The notes: a model not told the origin generated them from the sequence alone. A stretch of DNA of 64,000 nucleotides from an uncultured virus (IMG/VR IMGVR_UViG_3300025132_000002) (IMGVR_UViG_3300025132_000002), one strand, 5' to 3'; positions 2,573 through 28,681 are shown, counted from the stretch's first letter. Numbers and translations: made by a program.

Positions 2573-2733
2573 ATTAAACTCCAAAGCCTCTACAGGAGGC
2601 CATGTATTTTGGTTGTATAGTTTCTGCGGGATAGGTCCGCCCGTCCCACTCCAATCTCTTATGCGGTAGAATAGAAGTCGGCAAGGGTAAAGTACCCATT
2701 TTAGGTAGAAAATTATTCTACTCCGGTAGCGTC

Positions 2734-2985
2734 TCACTCTATTTGCTCAGACTCTAAGAGTAATGCGGGGCCAACAATCAACATTTTCGCTGTTCGGCTC
2801 GCGGGGATATTTACCAGCAGATTTTTCAGCCGCCCCTCTTCGTTCACCGCCAATAGCTTGTTATCTTTAAGCGTAACGATTTCTACATATCCCTCTACGT
2901 ATTTTTGTAGTTCCTCTAAAGAGAATGTGTCTCCTTTAGGTTCTACGGTTTTTTCTTCCCCTTCAACAGTAAATAGTGTAGCCAT
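2734..2985 (-). CDS. DUF3846-domain protein
   Basis: LEELQKYVEGYVE...VNEEG...N..AS...IVGPALL pattern. Confidence 0.75.
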   Translation of the reverse strand: MATLFTVEGEEKTVEPKGDTFSLEELQKYVEGYVEIVTLKDNKLLAVNEEGRLKNLLVNIPASRTAKMLIVGPALLLESEQIE

Positions 2986-4010: not shown

Positions 4011-4489
4011 AAGTCTATAACACCCTTAGCAGCTTTAGCTTTTTCAATTGATTCCATCTTAGTCATAAGAGCGCTGTTAATCATATAGATTTCACAGTTA
4101 GTGGTATACTGCGTGTAGTCAAACGCTGCAAAAACCTCTTCGTCTCTCCAGATCCGCTTATCCATTCTGCCCGTAAGGAACTCACTTTGGGGTGTGCTAT
4201 CCCCCCAACCTGCCTCAAAGGTATTCATCAGGTAACCACAATCGCTGTAACTGTTGCCCACTACCACCACTGCGTAAAAGATTTCATGGTAGTAAGCGTA
4301 AGCAACATCAACCGTAACTTCTCCGATAGTCTGTTCACAGACCCAGGCAATACCTTCGTCATTACCCTCTACGCAGTTTTTTGTTGGGGCGGGGAATGTT
4401 CTATATGCTCCCCACTTTACGCCCTTGTAACCATCTGCAAGTGGCCCTGCAATAGCAGTAGAAATAATAAAACTAAAAATACTTGTCAT
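4007..4489 (-). CDS. Hypothetical exported protein
   Basis: N-terminal hydrophobic signal-like segment; overlaps the MTase start. Confidence 0.55.
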   Translation of the reverse strand: MTSIFSFIISTAIAGPLADGYKGVKWGAYRTFPAPTKNCVEGNDEGIAWVCEQTIGEVTVDVAYAYYHEIFYAVVVVGNSYSDCGYLMNTFEAGWGDSTPQSEFLTGRMDKRIWRDEEVFAAFDYTQYTTNCEIYMINSALMTKMESIEKAKAAKGVIDL

Positions 4490-4497
4490 GCTTTATG

Positions 4498-4998
4498 TTA
4501 CCTCTTCAGTCTGTGGGCATACTTATCTAAGAACAGATCAGCGTCTTCGCGATTAGTGCCTCTAAAAGACACGTCAAGCTGTTCGCAACAATGGCGAATC
4601 AAAGCCCGTTGCTTACCTGAGATACCGCCGAACTTGACCATATAGGCTTCAGCCTGTTGGGCGGATTTCTCAGCGAGATTACGGCGCTTCTGGATAGATT
4701 CAAAATACTTGCTCGAAAATCTTGCACATCCCCCAAAAGCTCCAGCAGCAGTAGCGCTGTTGAAGTTAAACACTTCAATCATTGACTCAGGTTCAGGTTG
4801 CTTGTCGCCATCTTCGTTAATAACGATAGACGCCCGATAGCCTTCCTCTTCGTCGTCCAACTCTACGCAGATCCAGAAATGCCCCACAAGCTGAGTCATA
4901 AACTGTAATCGCCCGTCACAATCTTCTTCGATGAATGTGAAGTTCAAGACATGCTTTAGCTCGTCTCTCAGAGCCTCGTTACTAAATAAGTGCTTCAT
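4498..4998 (-). CDS. Hypothetical protein
   Basis: ATG at 4998 after GGAG; fills the operon gap. Confidence 0.55.
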   Translation of the reverse strand: MKHLFSNEALRDELKHVLNFTFIEEDCDGRLQFMTQLVGHFWICVELDDEEEGYRASIVINEDGDKQPEPESMIEVFNFNSATAAGAFGGCARFSSKYFESIQKRRNLAEKSAQQAEAYMVKFGGISGKQRALIRHCCEQLDVSFRGTNREDADLFLDKYAHRLKR

Positions 4999-5000
4999 GT

Positions 5001-6269
5001 TTATGCTCCATAAGTAATAAAACAATTTTGTTGGTATCGCGACATGCCTGTATAAGGGTGCCGCAAAAAAGCAAAAGGATTGTCAGGATCTCTAAGCCCG
5101 TTGATTGACCGTTCCCAAACATACAAAACATTAGCCCATTGTGAGCCTTGCGCCTTATGCGCAGTCATTGTGTAAGAATAATCTACATTAACAATGTTTC
5201 GCAGCAACGTAGACAACCTACGTTTGTTCTTGCCTCCAATCTTTCTCAAAGCCTTGTTAACAGGTCCGACAACTTTACCCCAACCTTTTTCAAGGGCTGA
5301 CACCGAAATGACACAAGACCGACCGTCTTCAGCAGTTACAGTAGTTAGGTTAAGTCTACTGGGACTAAGACGTTCAATCTCTTCAAACTGAGTTCCGGTA
5401 TACGGTTCGTAATGAGCTACAATAAATGTATCGCCGTTGATAAAGTTACCTGCGTTTGAAGTAGAGATTAGCTTTTCTCCGACCACTAACGGTCCTTGTT
5501 GCATGTAACCTTTGTGGAATCTGATGTTAGCGTTTAGTGCGATTCGGGTTTTGTTTCTATGTACGATAATCTGGCCTTCGTTGCCTTGACCATAAGCATC
5601 TACAAAGCGCTTCCACACTCTGTCTGACATCTCCCCCACCGCCTTCATCTCAGTGTCCGCAGACTTTTGATCTGAGTTATTAGACAGGTAACTGCGCAGG
5701 GCCGAATAGTTAGTAACCTCCTTGTTTCTAATGGCGGTTAGCGCTTGGACGCCGATGCCGGCTGTCTGCCGGTGAATCTCCGTATAGGTGAACGATGTAT
5801 CTTCGGGCTTGAAAAATGGTGAGTCTTTCACCGGGGGCAACTGAAACGGGTCTTTTGTTACGAACAGTTTACATCGAGCTGTATCAAGCTGTTCCTGTAG
5901 CCGAGAGCCCAGGTACGTACCAACCATGGAAGCCTCATCGAGCCACACAATACCGTTACGCGGTAGCTTGTCAGCCCTCCAGTTACCAAACTGTAGTCTG
6001 CCGTCCTCGTCCATGTAAGCCCGTCCTGAGATCGCCCCATGGATAGACTTACCTGTAATGTGCGTTCGCTGCACAGCTACCTTGACAGACAGCCAAGTAG
6101 GGCCGAGCATCATTACCTCGTCACCCTTCCATTCATTTTCAAGCAGCCATTCCACAATGGCGGTTTTGCCCGTTCCGGCGTACCCGTCAATGATCCCGGT
6201 ACCCGTCTCATTCATATCTGTCAGGGCTGCTGTCAGCCCTTCCATCTGATGGTCTGTAGGTGTAATCAC
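5001..6269 (-). CDS. RecD/Dda-like SF1B DNA helicase
   Basis: GYAGTGKT, DEASMV, DPFQLPPV, EIHRQ, TAHKAQGSQW motifs. Confidence 0.9.
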   Translation of the reverse strand: MITPTDHQMEGLTAALTDMNETGTGIIDGYAGTGKTAIVEWLLENEWKGDEVMMLGPTWLSVKVAVQRTHITGKSIHGAISGRAYMDEDGRLQFGNWRADKLPRNGIVWLDEASMVGTYLGSRLQEQLDTARCKLFVTKDPFQLPPVKDSPFFKPEDTSFTYTEIHRQTAGIGVQALTAIRNKEVTNYSALRSYLSNNSDQKSADTEMKAVGEMSDRVWKRFVDAYGQGNEGQIIVHRNKTRIALNANIRFHKGYMQQGPLVVGEKLISTSNAGNFINGDTFIVAHYEPYTGTQFEEIERLSPSRLNLTTVTAEDGRSCVISVSALEKGWGKVVGPVNKALRKIGGKNKRRLSTLLRNIVNVDYSYTMTAHKAQGSQWANVLYVWERSINGLRDPDNPFAFLRHPYTGMSRYQQNCFITYGA

Positions 6270-6946
6270 GCCGCCTCCCTAACAATGCCAGAAAAGTTAT
6301 AAATATATACGTTTTCAGTATGGGTGGTCACCCACTTATCATTGACCTTGCCTGAATACTTCACTTCAGTAACTTCAACCAATGTCATCTCAACATCGTG
6401 AACTGCAAGCTCGACTGAAGCCGCGCCCTCAACAGTAACGCTAAAGGTACCGTCTACTTCCATAAGCTCTTTTAGTTCTTCGTCCGTCAAAATAGTCTTT
6501 GACGCTTCCCACCATTCTATCGGGCCTTCTACAACTTCATACTCATAGTCAGGCTGAGTATGAAAACCAGGGCAACCTTGGTACTCGTAGTGACCAATAC
6601 CGTTATCAACCCAGTTACCATTTACGTATTCTGGGGCGTCACCCATAGCTTGGTCTAAAGTGTGGGAGCAGGAGGCAACAACTTTTTTGGGGTCGTTCCA
6701 CTCAGTCAATCTCTTTTGGTTACGTTCGATAAAGGTTAGGTCTGGTGTGTAATAGACAGGGATGCTTGTCACCTGAGAAGCTTCGTGAAAAAAGCCTTCC
6801 TCTACAAGCGCCTTCATTGTAAAGTGTTGCAGGTCGTCATCGTACTTAACGTACTCTTTGACCATATCGATCATGCGCTCACCGTCTGCCTCGACAGCAA
6901 ACAGCTCTTTCACACGTTGTAGAAATCGTAGTTCGTTAACATTCAT
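6266..6946 (-). CDS. Hypothetical protein
   Basis: 226-aa ORF with TTGGAGA RBS; 4-nt overlap with the helicase start. Confidence 0.65.
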   Translation of the reverse strand: MNVNELRFLQRVKELFAVEADGERMIDMVKEYVKYDDDLQHFTMKALVEEGFFHEASQVTSIPVYYTPDLTFIERNQKRLTEWNDPKKVVASCSHTLDQAMGDAPEYVNGNWVDNGIGHYEYQGCPGFHTQPDYEYEVVEGPIEWWEASKTILTDEELKELMEVDGTFSVTVEGAASVELAVHDVEMTLVEVTEVKYSGKVNDKWVTTHTENVYIYNFSGIVREAA

Positions 6947-6979
6947 AGTCAGTCTCCAATAATAAAGTATGTTAATAGT

Positions 6980-7234
6980 TCATTCAGAATGTTTGCGTGC
7001 CGTCCAAGCTCTGCGGCACGAGGAAAGATACCCCATGAAAACGTGTTCGTCAAGGGCCGGGTCAGCAGAAATCACACAAACTGAGCCGGGAGAAAGCACC
7101 ACATCGCCTTTCACCATATGACTTAGAGTGTCAGCCCAGGCCGTAGCCTTTTTAGCTTTTTCGTGGTCCGCCCCCATAATAAAACCAAAAACAAAAATAC
7201 AAAGGCATAATAGGATAATCAAAAACTTTTCCAT
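6980..7234 (-). CDS. Hypothetical membrane protein
   Basis: N-terminal TM segment; GGAGAG RBS. Confidence 0.55.
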   Translation of the reverse strand: MEKFLIILLCLCIFVFGFIMGADHEKAKKATAWADTLSHMVKGDVVLSPGSVCVISADPALDEHVFMGYLSSCRRAWTARKHSE

Positions 7235-11581: not shown

Positions 11582-11741
11582 AATGTACTCCAATGTACAG
11601 GTTGTGGTTGAATCCTCAGACAAGGTTTTAAGGTTGGAAGGACTGAGGCATCCCTTCTTTCAAACTACACTTAACGGGTTGAGTTAGACTGTCAAGGAAG
11701 TTTTTTTAGTTTCTTGGCAGTCTTTCGAGGGCACCATACCC

Positions 11742-11793
11742 TCACCCGATGACATTAACGTAATCTCCTGACTACTCTAATGTCAAGGGGTGA
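11742..11793 (-). promoter_or_regulatory. Hairpin-promoter element, copy A
   Basis: TCACCC-2x2 loop-TGACATTA...TAATGTCA-GGGTGA; TTGACA with TACGTT at 18 bp. Confidence 0.7.
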
Positions 11794-11828
11794 ATGTTCA
11801 GCGGCGGTTGCGGTAAGAACGGTAAAAC

Positions 11829-12767
11829 TTAAAGAACATTTTGTGTGTTGTACTCCGTAATAACTTTCATATGGGTTTCGGACTCAAAAATGCCATAAAG
11901 AGAGCGGTCGCTTGTTACAAATACTCTGTAGTTGCCATCTCCTTCGGGCAGCCAGTCTGCCAAATCTCCAGTATCGTCGTTTTCAATCTTTGTCAATAGT
12001 GTTTTCCATTGTTTTTCTGTGTAGGGGCCTCCAAAATCTGTATGGATTAGGGTTGATAGGTGAGTGTCAATGAATGCTTGGATAACCTGATGGTCGGTGG
12101 GCTCCTGATAAGTATCTCCGCCATCCCAGTCTACGGAACTTTGGATTTTATCATAATGAGTCTCTCCATTAACTTCCATATCATTCTTACGTAGAACTTC
12201 ATCCATACGTTCGATAAAGTATTCGTAGTTTTGCTCTGATTCAACCTCCAAATAACATTCAACATGGTACTCATTCATTTCATGGTAAATATTTTCTTCT
12301 CCACGGGGGTCGATCGGCTCACCACAATGGTCACAGATAGGGGCACACTTTGTACATAGGATGTCTCCGCCTACCTCGTGAAACTCGGCGTAATCCCGGC
12401 TACGGCTCCAAAGGTTTCGGGCGAGGGGCGTACCGTACGATTCACCGATAGCCTCAATCTTTTCAGCAAGGGCGCGGATAGTGCTGTCCCCTTTATCCAC
12501 TCGGCCCCATTGCGAATAGGTAAACTTATCCGCGTCGGCTGTAAGGGCTACTTCACAATGGGCGCATTGCTCAAAGACAATAGACGTATCGTCAATCGCG
12601 CCGGGGTCGTACCCATGATCCTCGTCGGTCTCAGGGTGGTAGCCGGAGCAGGAAGGGCACCCCTTGCCGCTCAGAATGGCGTCAGCTTCACCGGGGGAGA
12701 CATCCCCATGGTAGAGACCGTATCGGTCCCAGGACTCGCCACAGACGGTGCAGTTAATGTCAGGCAT
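11829..12767 (-). CDS. Multi-zinc-finger hypothetical protein
   Basis: Several CxxC pairs; TTGGAGAG RBS. Confidence 0.7.
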   Translation of the reverse strand: MPDINCTVCGESWDRYGLYHGDVSPGEADAILSGKGCPSCSGYHPETDEDHGYDPGAIDDTSIVFEQCAHCEVALTADADKFTYSQWGRVDKGDSTIRALAEKIEAIGESYGTPLARNLWSRSRDYAEFHEVGGDILCTKCAPICDHCGEPIDPRGEENIYHEMNEYHVECYLEVESEQNYEYFIERMDEVLRKNDMEVNGETHYDKIQSSVDWDGGDTYQEPTDHQVIQAFIDTHLSTLIHTDFGGPYTEKQWKTLLTKIENDDTGDLADWLPEGDGNYRVFVTSDRSLYGIFESETHMKVITEYNTQNVL

Positions 12768-12792
12768 TGTACTCTCCAAAGTTAATGTTGAT

Positions 12793-12848
12793 TATCTCAT
12801 TCAATGACAATCTACAATATTTACTCCAGATTGTCAAGGAAAAAGTTA
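12793..12848 (-). promoter_or_regulatory. Hairpin-promoter element, copy B
   Basis: TTGACA-N17-TAGATT; TGACAATCT/AGATTGTCA stem. Confidence 0.75.
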
Positions 12849-12849
12849 G

Positions 12850-13155
12850 TCAATCGTATTCGTAGAAATCAAACCAATAAGAGGCGGCTGCATCCAATGA
12901 AACATGTTCTCCCAAATCCTCTACATTTTCTTTGTTAAGGTCGGGTGTTTCCTTCCTGTCTAAGCCCAGGCTTGACTTAGGGTAGAAGGAACCTTCGTCG
13001 TAACCAGGGGAACCGCAACCTCCGATATCTACAATCTTTGCGAATAGACCGACGCCGATCACGTCGCTGCCCCGTATAGTACCCGCATAGTAAGTAACAC
13101 CATCTGTTACATAGGTGGTGTCACCCTGTTTAACTGCAAAGTAGCGAGCCATCAC
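12850..13155 (-). CDS. Hypothetical protein
   Basis: ORF in the coupled early operon. Confidence 0.6.
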   Translation of the reverse strand: MMARYFAVKQGDTTYVTDGVTYYAGTIRGSDVIGVGLFAKIVDIGGCGSPGYDEGSFYPKSSLGLDRKETPDLNKENVEDLGEHVSLDAAASYWFDFYEYD

Positions 13156-13367
13156 ACGTTCCGCATTACTGTTACAATGGCCGTTTTTGATACTTTGTGC
13201 CCAATCATTTTAGACAACCGCTCACCTACAGCGGAATGAAAAGCATATGCACCTTCCTTAATGCCGTAGCGGCGTTTATAACCACGGGCCGCTGTGTAAA
13301 GGTTTTCGTCGTTTTTAACCACACGGGTTACTTCATCGTGAATCCAAGGGGTATCAGACATTTTCAA
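13152..13367 (-). CDS. Hypothetical protein
   Basis: ORF in the coupled early operon; AGGAG RBS. Confidence 0.55.
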   Translation of the reverse strand: MKMSDTPWIHDEVTRVVKNDENLYTAARGYKRRYGIKEGAYAFHSAVGERLSKMIGHKVSKTAIVTVMRNV

Positions 13368-13602
13368 TCTCCTTTACAATGATAGCTTGCGCCAACATCT
13401 CTCTAAAATCTTCTACGGCCACGTTGGTTAGATCCTCTACGTCCTCCTCTTCTACAAAGTTATAAGATGCAAGAGATTCAAAGTGGTCTGAGAAATGTTC
13501 TTCAATGTCAAGTCCCTGTAGGAAATCTACAAGTAGTTCATGTAGGGTGTCGGCCCCAATAACCGGGCTTTCAAAAGAGTCGCTGCAAATTTGAAGGTTC
13601 AT
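13354..13602 (-). CDS. Highly acidic small protein
   Basis: TTGGAGAGG RBS; Asp/Glu-rich. Confidence 0.6.
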   Translation of the reverse strand: MNLQICSDSFESPVIGADTLHELLVDFLQGLDIEEHFSDHFESLASYNFVEEEDVEDLTNVAVEDFREMLAQAIIVKEIENV

Positions 13603-13880
13603 TATGCCTCTCCAATAGTTTCAAATCCAAATGGTGACGGGCTAAACCAGATAGCCACACCAGGGTTAAAGTTGTCCTGTTCAATCTGTGAAGGCTCGAA
13701 GAACCCTTCTGGCATCTTTACAATAACACGTAGAAAGTTACTGTCAAGGTGTTCTGATTCAATCTTTACTCCGTTGTCGGGAAACCAATCACAAGCCTTA
13801 GCCGCCTTGACAATAGACATTAGGGCGTGTTGATGTCCCAATGAATCAGACGTAGACAGTACCGCATACAAGTCTTTCAT
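13602..13880 (-). CDS. Hypothetical protein
   Basis: ATG at 13880 overlapping the upstream stop. Confidence 0.6.
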   Translation of the reverse strand: MKDLYAVLSTSDSLGHQHALMSIVKAAKACDWFPDNGVKIESEHLDSNFLRVIVKMPEGFFEPSQIEQDNFNPGVAIWFSPSPFGFETIGEA

Positions 13881-14074
13881 TCTTTCCCCCCGAGAGCCGC
13901 CCACTCTTCTGCTACAATGCCCGTTTTTACAAACTCTCTATCATCATCGGATAGATTAGGCATTGCATCCTGAATCAGCGCGCCGGCTTCCCACTCCTTA
14001 ATCTGTTGTCGAGTGACTGGCAAGTCTTTAGTTCGTACAATACCAGTTAGCATAGAGGTACGTTTAATCTTCAT
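13877..14074 (-). CDS. Conserved phage protein (LIQ.AMP.L...REF..TG family)
   Basis: Recognisable phage motif; TTGGAGAG RBS. Confidence 0.7.
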   Translation of the reverse strand: MKIKRTSMLTGIVRTKDLPVTRQQIKEWEAGALIQDAMPNLSDDDREFVKTGIVAEEWAALGGKE

Positions 14075-14092
14075 GTTACTCTCCAAGGATGA

Positions 14093-14149
14093 TTGTTTCA
14101 TACGATGACACTATAACATCTTACATCATAGTGTCAAGGTAAGAATCAA
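14093..14149 (-). promoter_or_regulatory. Hairpin-promoter element, copy C
   Basis: TTGACA-N16-TATAGT with TG extension; TGACACTAT/ATAGTGTCA stem. Confidence 0.75.
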
Positions 14150-14880
14150 CCAGTAAGTCGTCGTGTGTTAGATGCTCCCGATACCCCCTTGTTTAGTCTA
14201 ACACGTTGACCGGCTTTGTACCCGGCAGACGAATGACTTGCCCCCTTTCGAGCAACTCCTTTACCAAAGGTAAAGTTATCTGAAACCCACTGATCTACTT
14301 GCTTCTTACGGCTAACCATAAGGGCGAAGCCATCGGGATTTTCTTCGGGTTCCGTCTTCTTCATTTCTCGTAGCTTAGACCGTAGCCCGCTAACAGCCGA
14401 TTGACGGAACTCGGCCCCCAATGTCTTGCCGTGCTTGTGTCGGTCTTCCCATGAAGGGCTTTTACAATAAGCCTTAGCCGCCTTGTCAATCTGATTAGCT
14501 ACTACAGTGTAAAGATAGACTGCAATCTCACAGTCAGACTGATAGCCATAGAAGTGGAACATATTTGTGCCGCTACTCTGGGCCCCCTTAATATCAAGGT
14601 AATAGGCGATAGAAAAGGCAAGGTCGCGTTTCCACTGTTGGGTTTTTTGACCTCGGTAACGGCGCTTAGATTCGTCGATTGACAACTCGTTCTTTACAAA
14701 CGATACCGTCATTTTGACAAGGGGGTCAGACGGTCGATCTGATTCGGCCAACTGTTGTTCGGTTACCGCATGTTCCGTCATAAGACGGCGTGCCATTCTC
14801 ATCGCGGTTTCTGATTCGTTGCCCTCGCTACCATCGGCAAGGCGCATAAGCTTTTGGATTCGTTCAATGATCTTAGACAT
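14146..14880 (-). CDS. DUF2786-domain protein
   Basis: KIIERIQKLMRLA...E.E.A...ARRLM.EH N-terminus; GYKAG near the C-terminus. Confidence 0.8.
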   Translation of the reverse strand: MSKIIERIQKLMRLADGSEGNESETAMRMARRLMTEHAVTEQQLAESDRPSDPLVKMTVSFVKNELSIDESKRRYRGQKTQQWKRDLAFSIAYYLDIKGAQSSGTNMFHFYGYQSDCEIAVYLYTVVANQIDKAAKAYCKSPSWEDRHKHGKTLGAEFRQSAVSGLRSKLREMKKTEPEENPDGFALMVSRKKQVDQWVSDNFTFGKGVARKGASHSSAGYKAGQRVRLNKGVSGASNTRRLTG

Positions 14881-14904
14881 AGTGTCACTCCAAATGTATG
14901 TAAG

Positions 14905-15096
14905 TTAATCGTCCATCGTCGCGCTGGGTGGCAGGAACACCCTACCATCTACAATGTCCACACTACTAATAACAGGGTCTAAGTTAGTTGTCCAGTCCTG
15001 ATTGTGAATAAACTTCAGGGCAGAATCCCAAACATCGAGACTGATACCCTCATCCTGTGTGAGTAAGTTAATAAGAAACTGTACAAAGCCCGACAT
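14905..15096 (-). CDS. Hypothetical protein
   Basis: TTGGAGAGTGACATG start motif. Confidence 0.55.
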   Translation of the reverse strand: MSGFVQFLINLLTQDEGISLDVWDSALKFIHNQDWTTNLDPVISSVDIVDGRVFLPPSATMDD

Positions 15097-15293
15097 GTCA
15101 CTCTCCAATGTTTGTAAGTTAATCACTCCTCAATGCTTTGTCAATAATCTTTTTTGCCGCCTGTCTAACTTTCGTTTCGTGCGCTCTATCCACACGATCG
15201 GATTCATGGGCCGGCTTACGTCTATGACGAGCATTGACAGACTTCTCTCCATTACACCAGTTTTTGCGGTTCATGCCACTCTCCAATAGTTAA

Positions 15294-15357
15294 TGACTAT
15301 CTCATTCAATGACATTGTAACTTCCTACAATCACAATGTCAAGGAAAAAGTTAATCA
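15294..15357 (-). promoter_or_regulatory. Hairpin-promoter element, copy D
   Basis: TTGACA-N17-TACAAT; TGACATTGT/ACAATGTCA stem. Confidence 0.75.
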
Positions 15358-15543
15358 GATTAGTCCGAGGATGATTAGCCATGATGGACTATCATCGGGA
15401 CCATAACCATCGGGCTCTACTGTATGACCCGTGACGGACTCACACACCGAATCATATACCCACGCTTGGATTTCTTCGAAAGAAGGAACTTCGTATTCTT
15501 CACCATTCCAAGTAACTGTTTCAGGAAACATATCATACTCCAA
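15355..15543 (-). CDS. Small phage protein (VEPDG...SWL motif)
   Basis: CESVTGHTVEPDG...PSWL..LGLI; true start probably ~15531. Confidence 0.6.
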   Translation of the reverse strand: MEYDMFPETVTWNGEEYEVPSFEEIQAWVYDSVCESVTGHTVEPDGYGPDDSPSWLIILGLI

Positions 15544-15550
15544 GGATTAA

Positions 15551-15934
15551 TCAACCAAAAACAATAGAACCGTAACAAGCTACCTGTACAATAACATCGG
15601 CGTCGGAAGCGTCAATATCTGCGCCTTCCATTGTACGGTAAACTTCTGCCCAGAACTTTTGACCCCTCCTTGTCTGTACCTTTCCCTCCTTTAGCTTACA
15701 TAGCGCCGATGCAATAGCATCATTGTTGATCAATGTCCAGGGTTCTTCCGGGTCTTCGCAGTCACGGACCATGGCCGTAACATTGTTTTCATCGGTGTTA
15801 TTATAGCGCTTTACTACGGCCCAATGATTAACGCCGCCTTTAATCGCTGTAATGGCAATGCCAGAATAAAAGTTAGAACGGTCTGTACTACGCTGCATCA
15901 GAGACTCCATCATACCAATCGCTAAGGTTTCCAA
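15551..15934 (-). CDS. Phage hypothetical protein
   Basis: C-terminal IDASDADVIVQVACYGSIVFG phage motif; start uncertain. Confidence 0.65.
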   Translation of the reverse strand: METLAIGMMESLMQRSTDRSNFYSGIAITAIKGGVNHWAVVKRYNNTDENNVTAMVRDCEDPEEPWTLINNDAIASALCKLKEGKVQTRRGQKFWAEVYRTMEGADIDASDADVIVQVACYGSIVFG

Positions 15935-16112
15935 GGTTACGCTTGCCTTCTGCCTTAGAAGGATGGCGCGTCAAGCAATAGTTATATGCTTCTTTAATAG
16001 ATTGTTTAATCGTGCGGCGGTCTCCCCTATGGCTTGACCAATCCTTAATGATTGAGTCAACCATACAAGACATGTTAAATCGTTCGCGGCCAGTATCATA
16101 ACCGTTAGGCAT
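15888..16112 (-). CDS. Hypothetical protein
   Basis: AAGGA RBS; ORF. Confidence 0.45.
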   Translation of the reverse strand: MPNGYDTGRERFNMSCMVDSIIKDWSSHRGDRRTIKQSIKEAYNYCLTRHPSKAEGKRNLGNLSDWYDGVSDAA

Positions 16113-16175
16113 AGTTTATCCTTTAATCATTTTGTTGTAATAGTCAAGCAATCACTGTGTCAAGGAAAAAATAGA

Positions 16176-16427
16176 TTATTTTGTTTCTACTCCTGCATTA
16201 ACTGCGGCACATCCCATTTGAGTCAATGCAAACTTAACCTCTTTAAGCGTCGCCCTAAGTTTGATTACTTCCGGGTGTTGGGTGTCGGAGGTATCACCGC
16301 CGGTCCAATGGGCGGCGAACCCTTGACCGTTAGCCAGTCTATCAGACACGGCCGTTAGAAGGGCGGACGCTTTTTGAATATCGTCCGAAACAGAAAACCA
16401 TTGTTCAGTAGTAGGGTTAACTCGCAT
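16176..16427 (-). CDS. Hypothetical protein
   Basis: TTGGAGA RBS. Confidence 0.6.
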   Translation of the reverse strand: MRVNPTTEQWFSVSDDIQKASALLTAVSDRLANGQGFAAHWTGGDTSDTQHPEVIKLRATLKEVKFALTQMGCAAVNAGVETK

Positions 16428-16428
16428 A

Positions 16429-16749
16429 TCATTCTCCAAAGATAATGTCACATACTTTCTGGTATTCTTCCAATGTCATAGAGGGCCACCCGTCGTCTTT
16501 ACTCCTTACTTCCAGTTTTGTTGCGGCGAATCCTGTCCTACCGGGCTCAAAGCCCAGCCAGTAGATTTTACTGATTGACCACCCCGACATACGGCGGCGA
16601 CGGATAAAAGCCCGAACAGGATCGTAGTCCATCGACTGCAATACTTCTGTTTTGAAGTCAGGGCCATTCGGTCCCCGACGCGGGGGTCCGAGCTTTACAC
16701 GGGGTAGAGTATGGGCAGGACGAATAGAAGGTACTTTTGGCCAAGGCAT
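16429..16749 (-). CDS. Hypothetical protein
   Basis: TTGGAGAGTGATATG start motif. Confidence 0.6.
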   Translation of the reverse strand: MPWPKVPSIRPAHTLPRVKLGPPRRGPNGPDFKTEVLQSMDYDPVRAFIRRRRMSGWSISKIYWLGFEPGRTGFAATKLEVRSKDDGWPSMTLEEYQKVCDIIFGE

Positions 16750-16750
16750 A

Positions 16751-17113
16751 TCACTCTCCAATGTCTTTGTCAAACAAATCGTAGTAAAATGTTTCTGCAA
16801 TATACATACGATGCAGTTCGTCTGCATACTTTCGGGCGGTGTTATCGTAGCCCTTCACACTTACTGTAACATCGTTTCCGGTGAATGTCGAGCGAACAGT
16901 TACAATATATGTAACCCATCCATCATACATACCGTGTTCATTCATATGATGAAACGGTGCTTCAAATACCACCTTTTCTGGGGTTAAGCTAACCAGTTCG
17001 ACGCCAGAATCAAAGCCGCTACCAGACGGCATATGGTTATATAGAAGGTCGTCCGTCAGATAGGCATGGCCCGAATTCCATAGACGTTGCAATTCAGACA
17101 TAACAGTTTTCAT
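16751..17113 (-). CDS. Conserved phage protein (PSGSG.D...FHHMNE.G.YDGW)
   Basis: Recognisable phage motif; GGAGAGGTG RBS. Confidence 0.7.
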   Translation of the reverse strand: MKTVMSELQRLWNSGHAYLTDDLLYNHMPSGSGFDSGVELVSLTPEKVVFEAPFHHMNEHGMYDGWVTYIVTVRSTFTGNDVTVSVKGYDNTARKYADELHRMYIAETFYYDLFDKDIGE

Positions 17114-17157
17114 GTTTCACCTCTCCAAAAGTATTTATAATAAAGTCAACGTAATCG

Positions 17158-17260
17158 TGGGGATAGCGGGAATCGAACCCGCGCTAATACGTGTTAGCTT
17201 TGCCGAGCCTTTCACTACTTAGCCCGCCCAACCCCGGCAAGGGTTATGTACAATATCCCC
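17158..17260 (-). ncRNA. tRNA-like RNA with canonical acceptor stem and T-arm but non-canonical interior
   Basis: GGGGATA/TATCCCC-A acceptor stem; GCGGG-TTCGATT-CCCGC T-arm; no standard D-arm or 7-nt anticodon loop. Confidence 0.6.
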
Positions 17261-17278
17261 TTAAATCTTTCCAATAAA

Positions 17279-17361
17279 GTCAATGGAACCCATCTTACAC
17301 TCTACCCTTAATGGAGTGTGCTGGTATTGTCAAGGACAAAATGTAAGATGAACTCGATTGA
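17279..17361 (-). promoter_or_regulatory. Hairpin-embedded promoter, variant class
   Basis: TTGACA-N17-TAAGGG flanked by CATCTTACA/TGTAAGATG and GTCAAT/ATTGAC inverted repeats. Confidence 0.55.
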
Positions 17362-17385
17362 CCCTACTAAAAGGGTCGTAATAGA

Positions 17386-17820
17386 TTAGACTGCGATCGG
17401 GGTAGCCATACGGTCTACCATATAACATGCGAGGGTTTCCTTGTTATTTACCTCAACCCACACACCATCATGGTCTCGGCACAAATGCCATGTCCCGCCC
17501 CGGCTCGGTATCCACGGCCCATCATCTTCCAATAGATGTAGAGCACCACCATAGGTCGGTGTGTTATCGTAGGAGCCACCGTTAATGACCGCTGTATTTA
17601 GGGTGTACTTGCTATGGCGGAGGTCGTAGACCCATCGGGTTAGCGTGCCCCGTTCAATGCTTTGAGCGATGACATAGCCGGTATATGCGGTGCCGCAGCC
17701 ATCCCCGTTCCATGTGGCGAGGGGTTTGATTGACGCCGCGAGTAGCGTGTGATCGGTCAATCCAATGGTTCGGGTTAGGGATTCAAAGCATTGAGCAGGG
17801 GAAGGAAAAGTAATAGTCAT
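17386..17820 (-). CDS. Hypothetical protein
   Basis: TTGGAG RBS. Confidence 0.6.
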   Translation of the reverse strand: MTITFPSPAQCFESLTRTIGLTDHTLLAASIKPLATWNGDGCGTAYTGYVIAQSIERGTLTRWVYDLRHSKYTLNTAVINGGSYDNTPTYGGALHLLEDDGPWIPSRGGTWHLCRDHDGVWVEVNNKETLACYMVDRMATPIAV

Positions 17821-17838
17821 AGGTCACTCCAAGGTTAA

Positions 17839-18087
17839 TCAGCTAACAATGTTTTCGGTAAAGTCAAAGCCTTTTCTACAGATGTAACATGTTGGAGCGT
17901 TACTGTAAACCAGACAGTACACTCTATACCAACGTTCCCGGCCATCGGCACCCGTTGCCTTAACCTTTCGGGAGGTTGGGATCTTCTTACCATAACCGGA
18001 TGCTGTGTAGCTACGGCCCGCCAATTGCCATGGCAAGGGGTCGACAATGAATGGAACGGGGCCGGACTTCATATCAAGGTGTTGCAT
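17839..18087 (-). CDS. Conserved phage protein (TASGYG.KIPT...RVY...YSN)
   Basis: Recognisable phage motif; TTGGAGAG RBS. Confidence 0.7.
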   Translation of the reverse strand: MQHLDMKSGPVPFIVDPLPWQLAGRSYTASGYGKKIPTSRKVKATGADGRERWYRVYCLVYSNAPTCYICRKGFDFTENIVS

Positions 18088-18104
18088 ATCACTCTCCAAT
18101 GGTT

Positions 18105-18166
18105 AACAGTTTCATTCAATGACACTATAACTTGTAATGATTACAGTGTCAAGGAAAGAATCTATT
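18105..18166 (-). promoter_or_regulatory. Hairpin-promoter element, copy E
   Basis: TTGACA-N17-TATAGT; TGACACTGTAA/TTATAGTGTCA stem with one G.T pair. Confidence 0.75.
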
Positions 18167-18440
18167 TACATTTGTTGAGTCCCGCCTCATATCCTTTCAT
18201 AAAAGCATTCATCATATAGTATAGCTCACGCTTAGAGCTAAAGCCGGTTAGCTCATGGGTTCCTCCCCCGTCACTGTCGATACGCTCCAGTCGCACGTTT
18301 CCGGCATTGTGCCCGATAACATACGTACCGATATTGTAGTGACCGCCCTCACTGTCTACAGTATACTCATCGGGGTGCTCCCCCGTAACTTGGTTAAGGT
18401 TGTGTAGCCGTTGATTCAAAAGCTTTCGTGTCACTCGCAT
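18162..18440 (-). CDS. Hypothetical protein
   Basis: TTGGAGAGTGATATG start motif. Confidence 0.65.
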   Translation of the reverse strand: MRVTRKLLNQRLHNLNQVTGEHPDEYTVDSEGGHYNIGTYVIGHNAGNVRLERIDSDGGGTHELTGFSSKRELYYMMNAFMKGYEAGLNKCK

Positions 18441-18441
18441 A

Positions 18442-18792
18442 TCACTCTCCAATGGTAACAATTTGGGTTTCGTGGATTAGGGCGAAGACTGTAACGTCTT
18501 CACTAAGAAAGGCCCGTACCCATTGACCGAACCACGATTTGTCGGTCACACCCTCAGAAATTTGGGTGAGGTAGAGATACAGCGCATACTCTTTACTATC
18601 TGTAAAGGGCAACGGTTCCAGCCCTTTACGCTCCCTATCGCGCTGTAGATAATGGAAAGAATCGCACGAAATTGTGATCGGCTTCCACCGATCGGGGTCT
18701 CTTCCCCCTTTGTAGTCGGCCCGCTGGACTTTGTACCGATCGGGCTTATGGTTTGTAGGTCCGAGCCACTTTACTGTAATAGCACATGCCAT
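18442..18792 (-). CDS. Hypothetical protein (I.VK.LGPTN motif)
   Basis: TTGGAGAG RBS. Confidence 0.65.
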   Translation of the reverse strand: MACAITVKWLGPTNHKPDRYKVQRADYKGGRDPDRWKPITISCDSFHYLQRDRERKGLEPLPFTDSKEYALYLYLTQISEGVTDKSWFGQWVRAFLSEDVTVFALIHETQIVTIGE

Positions 18793-18930
18793 GTTTCACT
18801 CTCCAATGTCTTTGTTAGACGGGTAACCAGATGCCGGCCTAAAGATCCAAGCAATAAAATAGACGGACATAATAAAAGCGATAAGATTTATGGCCATGCT
18901 TCACTCTCCAATGGTAACTTAATAGGTTTG

Positions 18931-19215
18931 TTATGTCAATGGGGGGCATTCACCCGATACGATTCCACCATGGGCGACGATCATCATACGTACCACATGG
19001 GCCGGAACCCAACCATACACTGTGCCGGTCAAATCGCGGGGGTTTTCCGCGTAGTCCTTGATAAAGACACAAGGTCTGTTAGGAAAACCAAGCTCTACAC
19101 TTTGATAAGCTTTCGCAATATCCGATCTCGGTTCGCAGTAGTTGTAGCTACTTGCTTGAATGGACACTTTGAAGCCATCTGCACAGGTTACCTTTGCGTA
19201 AAACTTTCTACTCAT
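18931..19215 (-). CDS. Conserved phage protein (C.DGF..S.QAS...YC.PR...VELGFP)
   Basis: Recognisable phage motif; TTGGAGAG RBS. Confidence 0.75.
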   Translation of the reverse strand: MSRKFYAKVTCADGFKVSIQASSYNYCEPRSDIAKAYQSVELGFPNRPCVFIKDYAENPRDLTGTVYGWVPAHVVRMMIVAHGGIVSGECPPLT

Positions 19216-19240
19216 GTTTCACTCTCCAATCGAACCATCA

Positions 19241-19297
19241 TTGGTTCATTCATTGACATACTAACATGAATAGAAAGTATGTCAAGGAAAGAATCAA
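19241..19297 (-). promoter_or_regulatory. Hairpin-promoter element, copy F
   Basis: TTGACA-N16-TAGTAT; TTGACATACT/AGTATGTCAA stem. Confidence 0.75.
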
Positions 19298-19300
19298 GGA

Positions 19301-19534
19301 TTATAGCTTAAAGATTCCATGCAATTCCCCGTCATTAGACATCCAATACATTACTGAGGCTCCGCCGGCCCACGGACTGCCTACCCGCACCCATTCGTCG
19401 GGGTCCATGCACAGATCCTCCGCAATATCGCGGGGTACCCTACCGTCCGCTGGATACAGTTCATCATTATCGTTCACATCATAACGAACGAGCTTGTATC
19501 GGTCGCCGGTCATAACTGTTTCACGTCTTTTCAT
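19301..19534 (-). CDS. Hypothetical protein
   Basis: TTGGAGAG RBS. Confidence 0.6.
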   Translation of the reverse strand: MKRRETVMTGDRYKLVRYDVNDNDELYPADGRVPRDIAEDLCMDPDEWVRVGSPWAGGASVMYWMSNDGELHGIFKL

Positions 19535-19684
19535 ATTACTCTCCAATGGTTATAGCGTACCAATACCCAAGTTAGGGTCATCCTGACAATCCTGATCGAA
19601 GATACCTCCCATGTATTCAAACAAATCGAGCCACATTTCACGATCTTCGGGGTTAACGAAACGGACTTCCGACATATTCATAGC

Positions 19685-20125
19685 TCACTCCAATGTGATC
19701 GACTGCTGAAAAGACACATACTCATCATATGCTTCTTTAACCTTTTCTCCAATGAAGGTCAAGTCATTGTAGCATTTGTAGGACTTGCCCTTGAAAGCCC
19801 GTGTATCGCGGGAACTGGTAACGACAAGCGTGACATAGTATTCAACGTCCCGGTATTTCTCAATTGGTGTCCCGTCTTCGTAAGTCTCCCCGGTGCGGAA
19901 CCGTTCGGATTCAAGGTATCGAACGGGGGCGATAGCAATATATACTTCTTCGCCCCGTTGCGGTTCATAGGCCAGTCTAAGTTTTGCGCAAAACCCCGCC
20001 GTCACCTGTTGTGTGTCGGGTCCAAAGCAATACTTCACTAAATGTTTACCGTTACCTTGCTCCCATCGCGTAGATGGTACAAGGGGGGAAGCGTTCAAAA
20101 CGTCTGCCAAGGATGGAATAATCAT
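19685..20125 (-). CDS. Hypothetical protein
   Basis: TTGGAGAG RBS. Confidence 0.6.
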   Translation of the reverse strand: MIIPSLADVLNASPLVPSTRWEQGNGKHLVKYCFGPDTQQVTAGFCAKLRLAYEPQRGEEVYIAIAPVRYLESERFRTGETYEDGTPIEKYRDVEYYVTLVVTSSRDTRAFKGKSYKCYNDLTFIGEKVKEAYDEYVSFQQSITLE

Positions 20126-20166
20126 CACACTCTCCAATGTCAAGCATAGAAAAGAGATAGGATAGT

Positions 20167-20246
20167 GTGTGAGGGCTTTAGCCCGGTGTGCCGATCAAGG
20201 GTGACATACCGGTCTCTTCAAAACTTCAACACTAAAACCCTCACAC
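20167..20246 (-). ncRNA. Candidate small structured RNA (80 nt)
   Basis: 15-bp closing stem, large one-sided bulge, inner ~10-bp stem. Confidence 0.45.
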
Positions 20247-20290
20247 GATGACACGTCATAGGACGCGCCAAACTACCCAAACCATTGTTA

Positions 20291-20340
20291 ATGGTTCACC
20301 CTATGACATACTGAAACCAATATGTCAAGGGGAGAATCAT
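20291..20340 (-). promoter_or_regulatory. Hairpin element, copy G (short loop)
   Basis: GATTCTCCCCTTGACATATTG...CAGTATGTCATAGGGTGAACC. Confidence 0.7.
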
Positions 20341-20352
20341 CAAACTTTATGA

Positions 20353-20583
20353 TCACCCCCATTCCTGTGGCCAATACCGCACATCATCGCCCCGACCATT
20401 ACTCCAATTTGAGTCGGATAGGTCGATACCTTGTCGAAGGCAAAACGATCGGGTCCACACTTTGACGATATAGCCGGGCGGTAGATCCTTAGCTATTTCG
20501 ATGGCGTCCTCTTTGAATTCAGCGCCGGCCAAAACTTGTTCGGTGCGGCTGTTAATGACGTAAAAAGGGTATTCAGGATACAT
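20353..20583 (-). CDS. Hypothetical protein
   Basis: TTGGAGAGG RBS. Confidence 0.6.
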   Translation of the reverse strand: MYPEYPFYVINSRTEQVLAGAEFKEDAIEIAKDLPPGYIVKVWTRSFCLRQGIDLSDSNWSNGRGDDVRYWPQEWG

Positions 20584-20597
20584 AGTCCTCTCCAAAG

Positions 20598-21005
20598 TTA
20601 AAAGGAAGTCGGTACGCAGTCAAGGCCCTCACCAAAACGGGTGTAACTGAAAACACAGTTAACCCTACAGCTACCATTTGTCACGGTAACTTTTGCTTTT
20701 GAGCCCGACTGAAACGTAGCGCTCTCACCCTTATAGGGTTTTGGCAATACAACGGTGATACTGTACCACCATGTAACGTCACTGTGTTTCCGGATAGGGT
20801 CACCGATCAAACGGAAGGTATCCCATAGCGGCCCGCTTTCGGGGATGTCCAACCGAGAACTCGGGGCGCTGTACCGTTTACCCCATTGCTCCAACGTCCA
20901 AAAAACGCCATCATAGCAGTCAACGTCATCGTCCCAGCCATAGCAGTCGATAAGATACCCACGACGTCCTACAGACTTACGAATTTCTTTAAGCATATCT
21001 TGCAT
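20598..21005 (-). CDS. Hypothetical protein
   Basis: TTGGAGAG RBS. Confidence 0.6.
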   Translation of the reverse strand: MQDMLKEIRKSVGRRGYLIDCYGWDDDVDCYDGVFWTLEQWGKRYSAPSSRLDIPESGPLWDTFRLIGDPIRKHSDVTWWYSITVVLPKPYKGESATFQSGSKAKVTVTNGSCRVNCVFSYTRFGEGLDCVPTSF

Positions 21006-21015
21006 AGTTCTCTCC

Positions 21016-21067
21016 AATGGTTCACCCTATGACACACTAATGATAGTATGTCAAGGGGAGAATCATT
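21016..21067 (-). promoter_or_regulatory. Hairpin element, copy H (short loop)
   Basis: GATTCTCCCCTTGACATACTA-TCAT-TAGTGTGTCATAGGGTGAACC. Confidence 0.7.
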
Positions 21068-21311
21068 CAAGCGTTTCAATTTTGTCGATATAAATACGGT
21101 TCAGATTCCAATGGTTGACGGACCTACGGAATTGCCACGCATAAATCGTACGGTCAAGTCGCATAACACCGCTAACAGCTACATCCCAGCCCGGTCGCCC
21201 TTGCCACCTGTCATGGGCTTTAGCCGCATAGATACGGGCTCCAGGGTACTTCTCACAAAGTACCTTACGGGCATGTTCTACCGTTGGTCGTTCTACTTGA
21301 ACATAGGCCAT
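21063..21311 (-). CDS. Hypothetical protein
   Basis: TTGGAG RBS. Confidence 0.6.
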   Translation of the reverse strand: MAYVQVERPTVEHARKVLCEKYPGARIYAAKAHDRWQGRPGWDVAVSGVMRLDRTIYAWQFRRSVNHWNLNRIYIDKIETLE

Positions 21312-28289: not shown

Positions 28290-28681
28290 TTAACGCAGGA
28301 ATAAACAGAATGACTATTACAGTTCTTATCATTAGCGGTGCGGCGCTACTTCTAAGCGGCGGTGCTGTAGGCTGGTCTTTACGGGGCGAAAGAAGCTCTA
28401 AGATAATAGAGGCCCAGACCGAACTTATCGGAGAGGTACAAACCCAACAAAATAAACTATTGGAAGCCGCCCAACGGCCCATCGTCATTGACTCGGAAAT
28501 CAAGGCCGCGCTTGCCGATCTTCCTCCAGCTTGTATCGTAAGTGCTGGCGGCGATCCTCTAAGCGCCCAATGCGCACTTCAAGCTTGCTGGCGCTACGGC
28601 CAATCAGCAGCCCAACGACCTAACTGTGACGGCGTAGAGAAAGCCGCATTGATTGCCTACGAAGCAAAGGAGGCTAAGTGA
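28286..28681 (+). CDS. Membrane-anchored Cys-containing protein
   Basis: N-terminal TM, coiled coil, four Cys; start may be 28310. Confidence 0.55.
   Translation: MINAGINRMTITVLIISGAALLLSGGAVGWSLRGERSSKIIEAQTELIGEVQTQQNKLLEAAQRPIVIDSEIKAALADLPPACIVSAGGDPLSAQCALQACWRYGQSAAQRPNCDGVEKAALIAYEAKEAK

Follow-up and report, generated by a model that had tools for sequence, protein, structure and literature searches.

In phage T7, the RNase III signals R0.3, R0.5, R1, R1.1 and R1.3 are paralogous hairpins located between co-transcribed early genes, and the T7 intergenic spaces are also annotated with promoters (the E. coli promoters B and C, phi1.1A/B and phi1.3). In lambda sib retroregulation, the point at which a transcript starts or stops decides whether an RNase III hairpin forms. 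In Neisseria, insertion of a Correia element involves a target duplication. These elements (CREE/nemis) are described as intergenic inverted repeats able to supply a promoter, and RNase III binds or cleaves their RNA hairpin (PMC2649163). In T4-type phages, PeSL elements have been reported as an intergenic near-consensus sigma70 early promoter with a stem-loop and a Shine-Dalgarno sequence (SD) between small ORFan genes, and have been linked to genes being inserted, deleted or replaced and to degraded half elements (PMC4122927; PMC2839356). Here we describe a hairpin family that separates the small early genes of an uncultured marine phage and in which, compared with the T7 signals and PeSLs, the promoter hexamers lie inside the hairpin arms rather than beside a stem-loop.

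A covariance model built from 24 copies identified exactly eight sense-strand copies (49.8-80.8 bits) in the window, which is the whole 64-kb stretch of DNA analysed. All eight minus-strand intergenic elements listed in a preliminary description of this DNA (at 11742, 12793, 14093, 15294, 18105, 19241, 20291 and 21016) were recovered as hairpins of 58-70 nt, co-oriented with the genes. The features are as follows.

11733..11802, minus strand: hairpin A, 70 nt, covariance model 54.2 bits
from 11786, minus strand: -35 TTGACA of hairpin A, with candidate -10 TACGTT, spacer 18
12788..12853, minus strand: hairpin B, 66 nt, covariance model 74 bits
12837-12809, minus strand: nested promoter of hairpin B, TTGACA-17-TAGATT; upstream stop TGA at 12852
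14089..14153, minus strand: hairpin C, 65 nt, covariance model 77.8 bits
14137-14110, minus strand: nested promoter of hairpin C, TTGACA-16-TATAGT; upstream stop TGA at 14148
15293..15358, minus strand: hairpin D, 66 nt, covariance model 80.6 bits
15342-15314, minus strand: nested promoter of hairpin D, TTGACA-17-TACAAT; upstream stop TGA at 15357
18103..18168, minus strand: hairpin E, 66 nt, covariance model 80.8 bits
18152-18124, minus strand: nested promoter of hairpin E, TTGACA-17-TATAGT; upstream stop TAG at 18164
19237..19301, minus strand: hairpin F, 65 nt, covariance model 71.8 bits, weakest long-context fold
19285-19258, minus strand: nested promoter of hairpin F, TTGACA-16-TAGTAT; upstream stop TAA at 19303
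20287..20344, minus strand: hairpin G, 58 nt, 4-nt loop, 53.6 bits; only TAGGGT at spacer 19
21013..21070, minus strand: hairpin H, 58 nt, 4-nt loop, 49.8 bits, no well-spaced -10; upstream stop TGA at 21065, outermost pairs extending into the SD
16148..16178, minus strand: half element that retains the 5' arm and the -35; its homology to complete hairpins of related contigs (L025:4533, L014:3623 and L028:4378) stops in the loop at 16149, with a different gene downstream
12765..20137 (span), minus strand: RBS-start motif TTGGAGAGTR-N2-4-ATG, 12 copies

From the outside inwards, the lower hairpin consists of an outer stem of 7 bp, a 1x1 mismatch, 3 bp, a T.T mismatch and 3 bp, so that fixed 1x1 mismatches recur every 3 bp; the upper hairpin consists of a 2x2 loop and a 10-14 bp stem that opens with TGACA/TGTCA. 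This agrees with the architecture first proposed, except that the hairpin is longer, with an extra outer stem of 5-7 bp past another fixed 1x1 mismatch. As had been stated, the 5' arm is CCTTGACA in 8/8 copies, the T.T position is paired in copy A (A-T), and one outer pair varies between copies (U-A, C-G or A-U). The three mismatch positions stay unpaired despite base changes (A.A/A.C/A.G, C.T/C.C/C.A and T.T), and the outermost stems are wholly different in sequence between copies and still paired. Neither motif is expected at such frequency by chance: TTGACA-N15-35-TGTCA matched 7 times versus 0.37 expected (7 was reached in 0/100 shuffles), the matches being copies A-F with F counted on both strands, and CCTTGACA occurred 14 times versus 1.96 expected, 12 of them on the minus strand between 11690 and 21056. 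No Rfam family matched the hairpins. A covariance-model search of metagenomes, as the preliminary description had proposed, added 26 further full copies above the alignment threshold from eight related marine contigs.

The hairpin structure is under selection. In an alignment of 34 copies (8 from the window and 26 from relatives), 94.7% of 843 pair cells were paired, compared with 78.2 +/- 0.8% in shuffle controls (the observed value was reached in 0/500) and 31-53% in slid controls; these cell counts overstate the number of independent events because the copies are close relatives (about 75-90% nucleotide identity) and paralogues. Both sides changed at 16/25 pairs, matched in 2/500 shuffles, and the covariation score was 0.529 versus 0.209 in shuffles, exceeding 500/500 of them. 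A MAFFT-only alignment of 24 copies gave similar values (94.6% paired, 15/25 pairs changed on both sides, covariation 0.494 versus 0.196). The expectation that these elements form a genuinely covarying family was thus borne out. Promoter bases take part in the covariation: the three free positions of the -10 hexamer covary with the bases directly after the -35 (e.g. AU 12, GC 9, CG 6), and the -35 variant TTGCCA is compensated by TGGCA in 2/4 copies. One orthologue (L034:812) carries two uncompensated upper-stem mismatches.

Wobble pairs were concentrated on the minus (sense) strand, as the preliminary description had it, with 94 G.T/T.G versus 7 A.C/C.A cells in the 34-copy alignment and 63 versus 5 in the MAFFT alignment. 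This asymmetry, which could be inflated by strand-biased mutation, indicates that selection on the fold acts only through the sense strand, and therefore argues for RNA and against a duplex operator or cruciform. Consistently, the mean RNA minimum free energy (MFE) was -26.4 for the sense strand versus -21.6 for the antisense strand, the sense fold being the more stable in 25/30 copies. Fold z-scores against shuffles were -6.08 for E, -5.43 for D and -6.06 for H. When 120 nt of context was included on each side, five copies (B, C, D, E and H) had the consensus fold as their MFE structure, with 22-24 of 24-25 pairs formed; the fold was partial in A (14/25) and G (10/24), and absent in F (0/25).

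An inverted repeat centred on a promoter, with TGACA half-sites invariant within the window, is also what would be seen if a dimeric repressor bound a duplex palindromic operator, or a cruciform acted likewise, to shut off the early promoters. We disfavour this explanation and consider it very improbable. The distance from TGACA to TGTCA varies within 14-26 nt (14, 21, 22 or 26 nt), and hence does not describe a fixed-geometry protein site; the inner and outer arms compensate rather than conserve, as the two-sided changes show, and the wobble bias leaves the opposite strand mismatched. Moreover, G and H are not promoters, and the early region yielded no helix-turn-helix protein.

A promoter scan of 14 kb returned the hairpin elements as its best matches, with 10-11 of 12 positions of the sigma70-type consensus. 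The proposal that the -10 hexamer is the 3' inner arm held, with spacers of 17 (B), 16 (C), 17 (D), 17 (E) and 16 (F), and 18 in A as well. G and H, as claimed, keep the fold without promoter geometry, with loops of 4 nt and, as the sole -10 candidate, TAGGGT spaced 19 bp from the -35; their orthologues in two related contigs (L007 and L025) likewise keep the fold and 4-nt loops and lack a -10 at 16-18 bp. Conversely, promoters without the fold occur at 11695, 16163 and 17333, and at L039:1299 in a relative. Fold and promoter are therefore separable, each occurring without the other. A transcript from the element's own promoter starts in the 3' arm and cannot form the fold, as had been pointed out. 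A hairpin promoter in single-stranded DNA, of the Frpo or N4 early type, is not supported: folding pairs the -35 with bases after the -10 and the -10 with bases after the -35, which puts the hexamers opposite one another on separate arms, abolishes their 16-18 bp spacing and destroys the promoter geometry. This, together with the unfolded promoters and the promoterless folds, speaks against a structure-dependent promoter; nor did the window yield a virion or phage RNA polymerase.

In six of the eight copies (B, C, D, E, F and H), the upstream stop codon lies inside the 5' edge of the hairpin or 2 nt before it, and an SD lies within about 12 nt downstream, in line with the claim that most copies run from the upstream stop to the next RBS. 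The RBS motif TTGGAGAGTR-N2-4-ATG follows most hairpins. Terminator-like sites were no more frequent than in shuffles (12 versus 12.7 expected), and the scan found none at the hairpin junctions; therefore, read-through into the hairpins is expected. This bears on the view that the hairpin is an attenuator or terminator in read-through RNA that insulates each cassette without processing, as for PeSL stem-loops, which have been reported as effective terminators beside early promoters (PMC2839356). The hairpins are very stable (z about -6) and stop just before the next RBS, which would suit such a role, but none of the copies is followed by a U-tract, the junctions yielded nothing in the terminator scan, and the genes behind G and H, which have no usable promoter, would need read-through. 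We regard simple attenuation as unlikely.

Relatives differ from the window in mosaic blocks and in gene-sized indels that end at hairpins and at the RBS motif, and one tandem duplication of a hairpin element was seen. The anticipated gene gain and loss with breakpoints at the elements was thus found, including the half-element junction in the loop at 16149. Among 13 joints from four runs, five had an end at or in a hairpin and five had one at the RBS motif, which also serves as a deletion junction in other metagenome contigs; several breakpoints fell in this repeated motif, with 9-18 nt of identity. A sense-strand single-stranded DNA fold used for recombination (attC-like cassette capture) or priming (ssi-like) would account for the strand specificity, the fixed mismatches, and the indels and duplication at cassette junctions. 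Against it, the breakpoints keep to no single fixed position but are scattered over the hairpin edge, the loop and the RBS motif, which fits homologous exchange, and neither a Pfam scan of 76 ORFs nor a PHROGs scan of 18 turned up an integrase or recombinase family. Furthermore, with DNA energies the fold reaches only about -11 kcal/mol and has no strand asymmetry, and G.T makes up 11% of pair cells, as is typical of RNA. We consider such a DNA fold improbable, and the attC-like cassette system suggested earlier was not supported.

Multi-copy, palindromic, intergenic and promoter-bearing elements also invite comparison with mobile repeats (MITE-like), in which the fold would be a by-product of terminal inverted repeats; Correia elements, which make promoters and are bound or cut by RNase III in the published account (PMC2649163), are the obvious parallel. 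However, the hairpin ends show neither target-site duplications nor flanking direct repeats, all 8/8 window copies are co-oriented, no transposase was found among the scanned ORFs, and the outermost stems are wholly different yet paired, unlike terminal repeats copied by transposition. There is accordingly very little chance that the family is a mobile repeat.

Of the three options initially put forward (a structure-dependent promoter, a processing system or a cassette-shuffling system), processing or insulation of read-through RNA fits best. The hairpin probably marks a site where a long early message is cut or insulated. Specifically, we propose, with about an even chance of being right, T7-like processing of RNase III type in read-through early mRNA, combined with a nested sigma70 promoter and junctions that act as exchange homologies. 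Each element would be a junction between early-gene cassettes carrying two overlapping codes. In DNA, it would be read as a host sigma70-type promoter, its TTGACA supplied by the 5' arm and its TAnnnT by the 3' arm; transcription is predicted to begin at the first paired base beneath the 2x2 loop, which gives a leader of 29-36 nt. In RNA, the full 58-70 nt hairpin would form only in transcripts begun further upstream, and would play the part that the RNase III signals play in the T7 early region. The enzyme would be a double-strand-specific nuclease, host RNase III being the most likely candidate; its cut, at or near the internal loop, would leave the upstream message with a protective 3' hairpin and release the downstream gene, whose new 5' end would fall no more than a few bases from the start set by the nested promoter. 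Transcripts from the nested promoter, having no 5' arm, would not be cut. The conserved junctions would also serve as short homologies for the gain, loss or swap of single genes. We infer the formation of the hairpin by read-through RNA in vivo, its cutting and the identity of the enzyme from these sequence patterns; a search for RNA runs that contain this DNA returned none.

The processing model does not account for the fixed mismatches or the invariant TGA of the 3' arm. Another reading is that the hairpin is an RNA site at which a phage protein, for instance a dedicated nuclease or a regulator of translation or stability, reads the TGACA/TGTCA helix and the fixed mismatches. G and H retain the helix although they have no -10 that would require it, the three mismatch positions remain unpaired while their bases change, and most early genes are ORFans without a family match; but scans of the early region returned no RNA-binding or nuclease family, and conservation of the helix is explicable by the -35 hexamer and recent common descent. 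We think it unlikely that such a protein is involved. A broader speculation, to which we give only a small chance, is a self-insulating expression junction of a so far undescribed kind, in which the hexamers are hairpin pairing partners, primary and processed 5' ends are alike, and a dedicated phage factor reads the TGACA/TGTCA helix and three fixed mismatches and cuts RNA or captures cassettes; the early region would then be an array of promoter-carrying cassettes with its own junction-recognition system.

The overlapping code is compact: one stretch of 60-70 bases is a near-consensus promoter at the DNA level and a covarying hairpin at the RNA level, and at the -10, and even at the -35, its bases co-evolve with those they pair with. 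Should the hairpin signal processing or insulation, small early genes would be autonomous, each with its own promoter, message ends and short exchange homologies, which would help explain how phages shuffle ORFans without upsetting their neighbours. Because the promoter is a consensus sigma70 promoter, the design is testable in E. coli, and the element may be useful as a terminator-free insulator part.

The closest parallel is with the T7 signals, which likewise occupy the intercistronic space from stop codon to next RBS. When T7 R0.3-R1.3 were folded in the same way and compared with the predicted folds of 30 copies, the geometry was the same (9-13 bp of upper stem, then an internal loop and a lower stem), although there was no sequence similarity: in a search of T7 300-7000 with the hairpin model and filters off, the best hit was 6.1 bits (E 9.7). 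Unlike the T7 sites, the hairpins described here enclose a sigma70 promoter with -35 and -10 on opposite arms, so that their own transcript lacks the fold, and have fixed 1x1 mismatches every 3 bp in the lower stem; their cleavage is a prediction. With PeSLs they share a sigma70-like early promoter and SD repeated between small early genes, and indels and replacements between relatives that end at the elements, including a half element. However, the PeSL stem-loop is described as short, G/C-rich and just upstream of the promoter (PMC4122927), whereas here the promoter is inside a 58-70 nt hairpin, and PeSLs belong to T4-type phages, to which this phage is unrelated. Correia elements are bacterial, mobile and found in both orientations, whereas the phage hairpins are co-oriented, without target duplication and with copy-specific outer stems. 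Lambda sib resembles them in that hairpin formation is set by transcript start or end, but it is a single site at the int 3' end with no nested promoter and a different logic. Taken together, these comparisons add a nested-promoter variant to the intergenic hairpin families of phages.

All eight minus-strand hairpins that the preliminary description placed between the early genes (copies A to H) were found in the window at the places it gave. TTGACA-N15-35-TGTCA occurs there 7 times against 0.37 expected, and CCTTGACA 14 times against 1.96. Folding of 30 distinct copies, eight from the window and 22 from relatives, predicted a structure that is longer than first described and very regular. From the outside inwards, a 5-7 bp outer stem is separated by a 1x1 mismatch from a first 3-bp helix, and this by a T.T mismatch from a second 3-bp helix. 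Further in lie an internal loop, 2x2 or in some copies 1x1, and an upper stem of 10-14 bp that has TGACA/TGTCA at its base and is capped by a 4-14 nt loop; the whole hairpin measures 58-70 nt. The upstream gene's stop codon lies inside the 5' edge of the hairpin or 2 nt ahead of it in six of the eight copies, and an RBS follows within about 12 nt of the 3' edge in the same six. Folding z-scores are about -6 relative to dinucleotide shuffles. When more flanking sequence is included, B, C, D, E and H take the consensus fold as their MFE structure, A and G do so only in part, and F does not. The sequence 3' of F-type copies (window 19213-19236, minus strand; also at the F-type copies of the related contigs L020, L025 and L037) could pair into a small alternative hairpin, GAACC..GGTTC, where the own-promoter transcript begins; this may be the reason that F misses the consensus fold in the longer context. 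About 140 nt of non-coding DNA (window 20144-20286, minus strand), with no match in Rfam, separates hairpin G from the next RBS; in L007 and L025, the RBS stands directly behind the counterpart of G.

The claim of a covarying family with fixed mismatch positions is borne out by an alignment of 34 copies, in which standard pairs fill 94.7% of 843 pair cells, although the copies are paralogues and close orthologues whose cell counts are not independent. The paired fraction was 78.2 +/- 0.8% with shuffled partners (none of 500 shuffles reached the observed value) and 31-53% with partners slid by 1-3 columns. The more robust pair and pair-type counts gave changes on both sides in 16 of 25 pairs (reached by 2 of 500 shuffles) and 44 further pair types (0 of 500). 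Some pairs take five or six states, such as an outer-stem pair with GC 9, AU 8, CG 7, UA 5, GU 2 and UG 1. The promoter is itself involved: where the -10 hexamer is free to vary, at three positions, its bases covary with those directly behind the -35. The -35 variant TTGCCA is compensated by TGGCA in the 3' arm of two orthologous copies (L028:2560 and L014:5593) and uncompensated in two others. Three positions stay unpaired despite varying bases: A.A/A.C/A.G, C.T/C.C/C.A, and T.T (22 of 24 copies). A structure-blind MAFFT alignment of 24 copies gave the same covariation outcome; applied to all 30 copies, MAFFT misaligned the short-loop G/H type, and the model-based alignment was used instead.

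The wobble pairs also indicate which molecule folds. G.T/T.G outnumbers A.C/C.A by 94 to 7 in cells, by 16 to 4 in position-by-type classes, and, as G.T against A.C, by 63 to 5 in the MAFFT alignment. Neither a duplex palindrome read by a protein nor a two-strand cruciform predicts this asymmetry. By RNA energies, 25 of 30 copies are more stable as the sense than as the antisense strand (means -26.4 versus -21.6 kcal/mol), whereas DNA energies are about -11 kcal/mol for either strand, without asymmetry. The TGACA and TGTCA boxes lie 14, 21, 22 or 26 nt apart, a range that a dimeric DNA-binding protein would not tolerate but a hairpin does. Based on the wobble asymmetry, the RNA energies and the variable box spacing, we conclude that the fold was selected in a single-stranded sense nucleic acid, most simply RNA. 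We regard it as likely that the hairpin acts at the RNA level.

Within 14 kb, no sigma70 match is better than the promoters nested in B-F, which have 10-11 of 12 consensus positions and spacers of 16-17; the -10 candidate of copy A is TACGTT, at a spacer of 18. Since the first T of TGTCA doubles as the last T of the -10, the predicted start falls on the first paired base beneath the internal loop, leaving predicted leaders of 29-36 nt. This position agrees with the preliminary expectation that a transcript from the element's own promoter would lack the entire 5' arm. Terminator-like sites in the region are as frequent as expected by chance (12 versus 12.7), and none lies at any junction; therefore, transcripts from upstream promoters must cross the elements and carry the full hairpin. 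As regards a possible translational switch, the SD of 5 of 6 copies was more accessible in RNA from the own promoter than in read-through RNA (H, 0.88 versus 0.43), with the reverse in C, an unfair comparison because the read-through construct is much longer. A leaderless mini-ORF beginning at the invariant A/G-TGA at the predicted start was rejected, as reading frames judged by eye differ among copies.

The fold and the promoter are separable. As first described, G and H retain the fold without promoter geometry. Like their orthologues in L007 and L025, they have a compensated upper stem and a 4-nt loop, and TAGGGT at 19 bp is their only -10 candidate. Conversely, the promoters at 11695, 16163 and 17333 lack the hairpin-family fold, and L039:1299 keeps the promoter of L034:868 with the 3' arm lost. 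Behind the fold-less promoter 17333, which has a different inverted repeat of its own, sits a tmRNA/tRNA-like element (window 17155-17260, minus strand; Rfam RF00023, 27.9 bits, E 5e-8, gathering score of 47 not reached) that ARAGORN did not call.

We folded the early RNase III signals of phage T7 from the T7 record for comparison. Their upper stems have 9-13 bp above the internal loop, and R0.5 begins at the gene 0.4 stop codon; the present hairpins resemble them in size, two-stem geometry and stop-to-RBS placement. By this analogy, cleavage on the 3' side of the internal loop would leave an end 1-2 nt upstream of the predicted start of the nested promoter; the downstream mRNA would then be almost the same whether processed or primary, and a 3' hairpin would remain on the upstream mRNA. 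The hairpin could alternatively act as a terminator, but no copy is followed by a U-tract and the genes behind G and H seemingly rely on read-through. For processing by an RNase III-type enzyme specifically, we put the chances at about even.

The window covers part of a double-stranded DNA phage genome, and its genes further include a Dda-like helicase, a primase/helicase, two DNA methyltransferases, a dUTPase and four tRNAs. Individual features are:
32784-34433, portal
34421-36238, large terminase
2985-4010 and 28678-29244, two adenine methyltransferases
30335-30913, plus strand, middle-region gene resembling HNH/NUMOD4 homing endonucleases, its C-terminal domain a helix-turn-helix
56971-63360, plus strand, 2129-aa ORF without PHROG match, closing the structural block
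The 11.7-21.1 kb region is a minus-strand array of small ORFan genes, in which Pfam matched no family except one DUF protein. No DNA match to the window was found among 50,697 deposited phage records, and its 708-aa structural protein had no match in cultured phages, to which the terminase shows only about 20-24% protein identity. Portal genes identical or 90%-identical to that of the window are on short IMG/VR contigs, and near-identical DNA came from marine or aquatic metagenome runs only.

Scanning metagenome contigs with a 20-base pattern yielded 39 stretches. Eight contigs (L007, L013/L014 as one contig, L020, L025, L028, L034, L037 and L039) belong to the same phage lineage, with 75-90% identity across shared blocks. 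With a covariance model trained on 24 copies, the window yielded 8 sense-strand copies and no more, and the lineage contigs yielded 27 complete ones, 5 of them without the exact search pattern; one, at 43 bits, was under the alignment threshold and was left out of the 34-copy alignment, and one more is truncated by a contig end. Antisense matches at the same sites reached about half the sense score, and 42 unrelated loci scored at most 33.7 bits. The family was not found in 185,579 species genomes, where the eight single pattern matches, all in unrelated bacteria (about 10 estimated by chance), were rejected because none exceeded 33.7 bits. Two element patterns found no member in IMG/VR, two early proteins found no relatives there, and Rfam has no family for the hairpins. 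The portal relatives L004 and L005 (39-40% identity) contain neither TTGACA..TGTCA nor a consensus TTGACA-N16-18-TAnnnT, in records that are 48% and 33% complete and may miss the early region. A different hairpin-nested promoter, TTGACA..TATTGT, occurs in unrelated marine phage contigs (L006, L008, L011, L015-L018, L023, L026, L027, L031, L033, L040-L048); in its hairpin, the SD of the gene forms one outer arm and an anti-SD the other, and this hairpin would mask the RBS solely in read-through RNA. It was rejected as the same family, being unrelated and present once per record in the three records searched.

Between elements, the relatives share some genes and differ in others, in a mosaic fashion. 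Promoter 16163 is a half element: its homology to the complete hairpins of three relatives stops in the loop, beyond which both the RBS and the gene differ. In DNA contigs from four further metagenome runs, 13 joints were seen, 5 of them with one end at or within a hairpin:
12850/12852 to 13149/13151, hairpin end, in two runs
15053 to 15335, hairpin end
18160 to 19685, hairpin end
90-nt tandem duplication of F, hairpin joint
Another 5 fall within an RBS-start motif that recurs in the region, with 4-18 nt in common at the joint, 2 are intragenic, and 1, in one contig, deletes the tmRNA-like element (17129 to 17273). This motif, TTGGAGAGTR-N2-4-ATG, has 12 copies at 12765-20137 (minus strand), all in the early region, against 0 expected by chance, and forms a deletion junction in other metagenome contigs. 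Of the proposed cassette shuffling, the ending of indels at the elements or the motif thus stands, whereas a site-specific system does not fit the scattered junctions, and no integrase was found among the scanned window ORFs. Homologous exchange is consistent with junctions that are scattered over short conserved sequences, and it is likewise proposed, in excerpts of PMC4122927 and PMC2839356, for the promoter-early stem-loop (PeSL) cassettes of T4-type phages. The ending of indels at elements is an association and not a mechanism, since surviving gene-sized indels are expected to end intergenically.

Taken together, the element family is real and has strong support; it had not been catalogued before, and a phage intergenic hairpin with a nested promoter was not described in the open-access literature searched. 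By sequence and layout, it belongs to neither the T7-type signals, the PeSL cassettes nor the Correia elements, the last being a bacterial parallel as far as the excerpts of PMC2649163 go. The element acts like a fusion of T7-type intercistronic processing hairpins with PeSL-type promoter cassettes, and its distinguishing feature is the nesting itself, wherein the -35 and -10 occupy opposite arms and co-evolve with their pairing partners.
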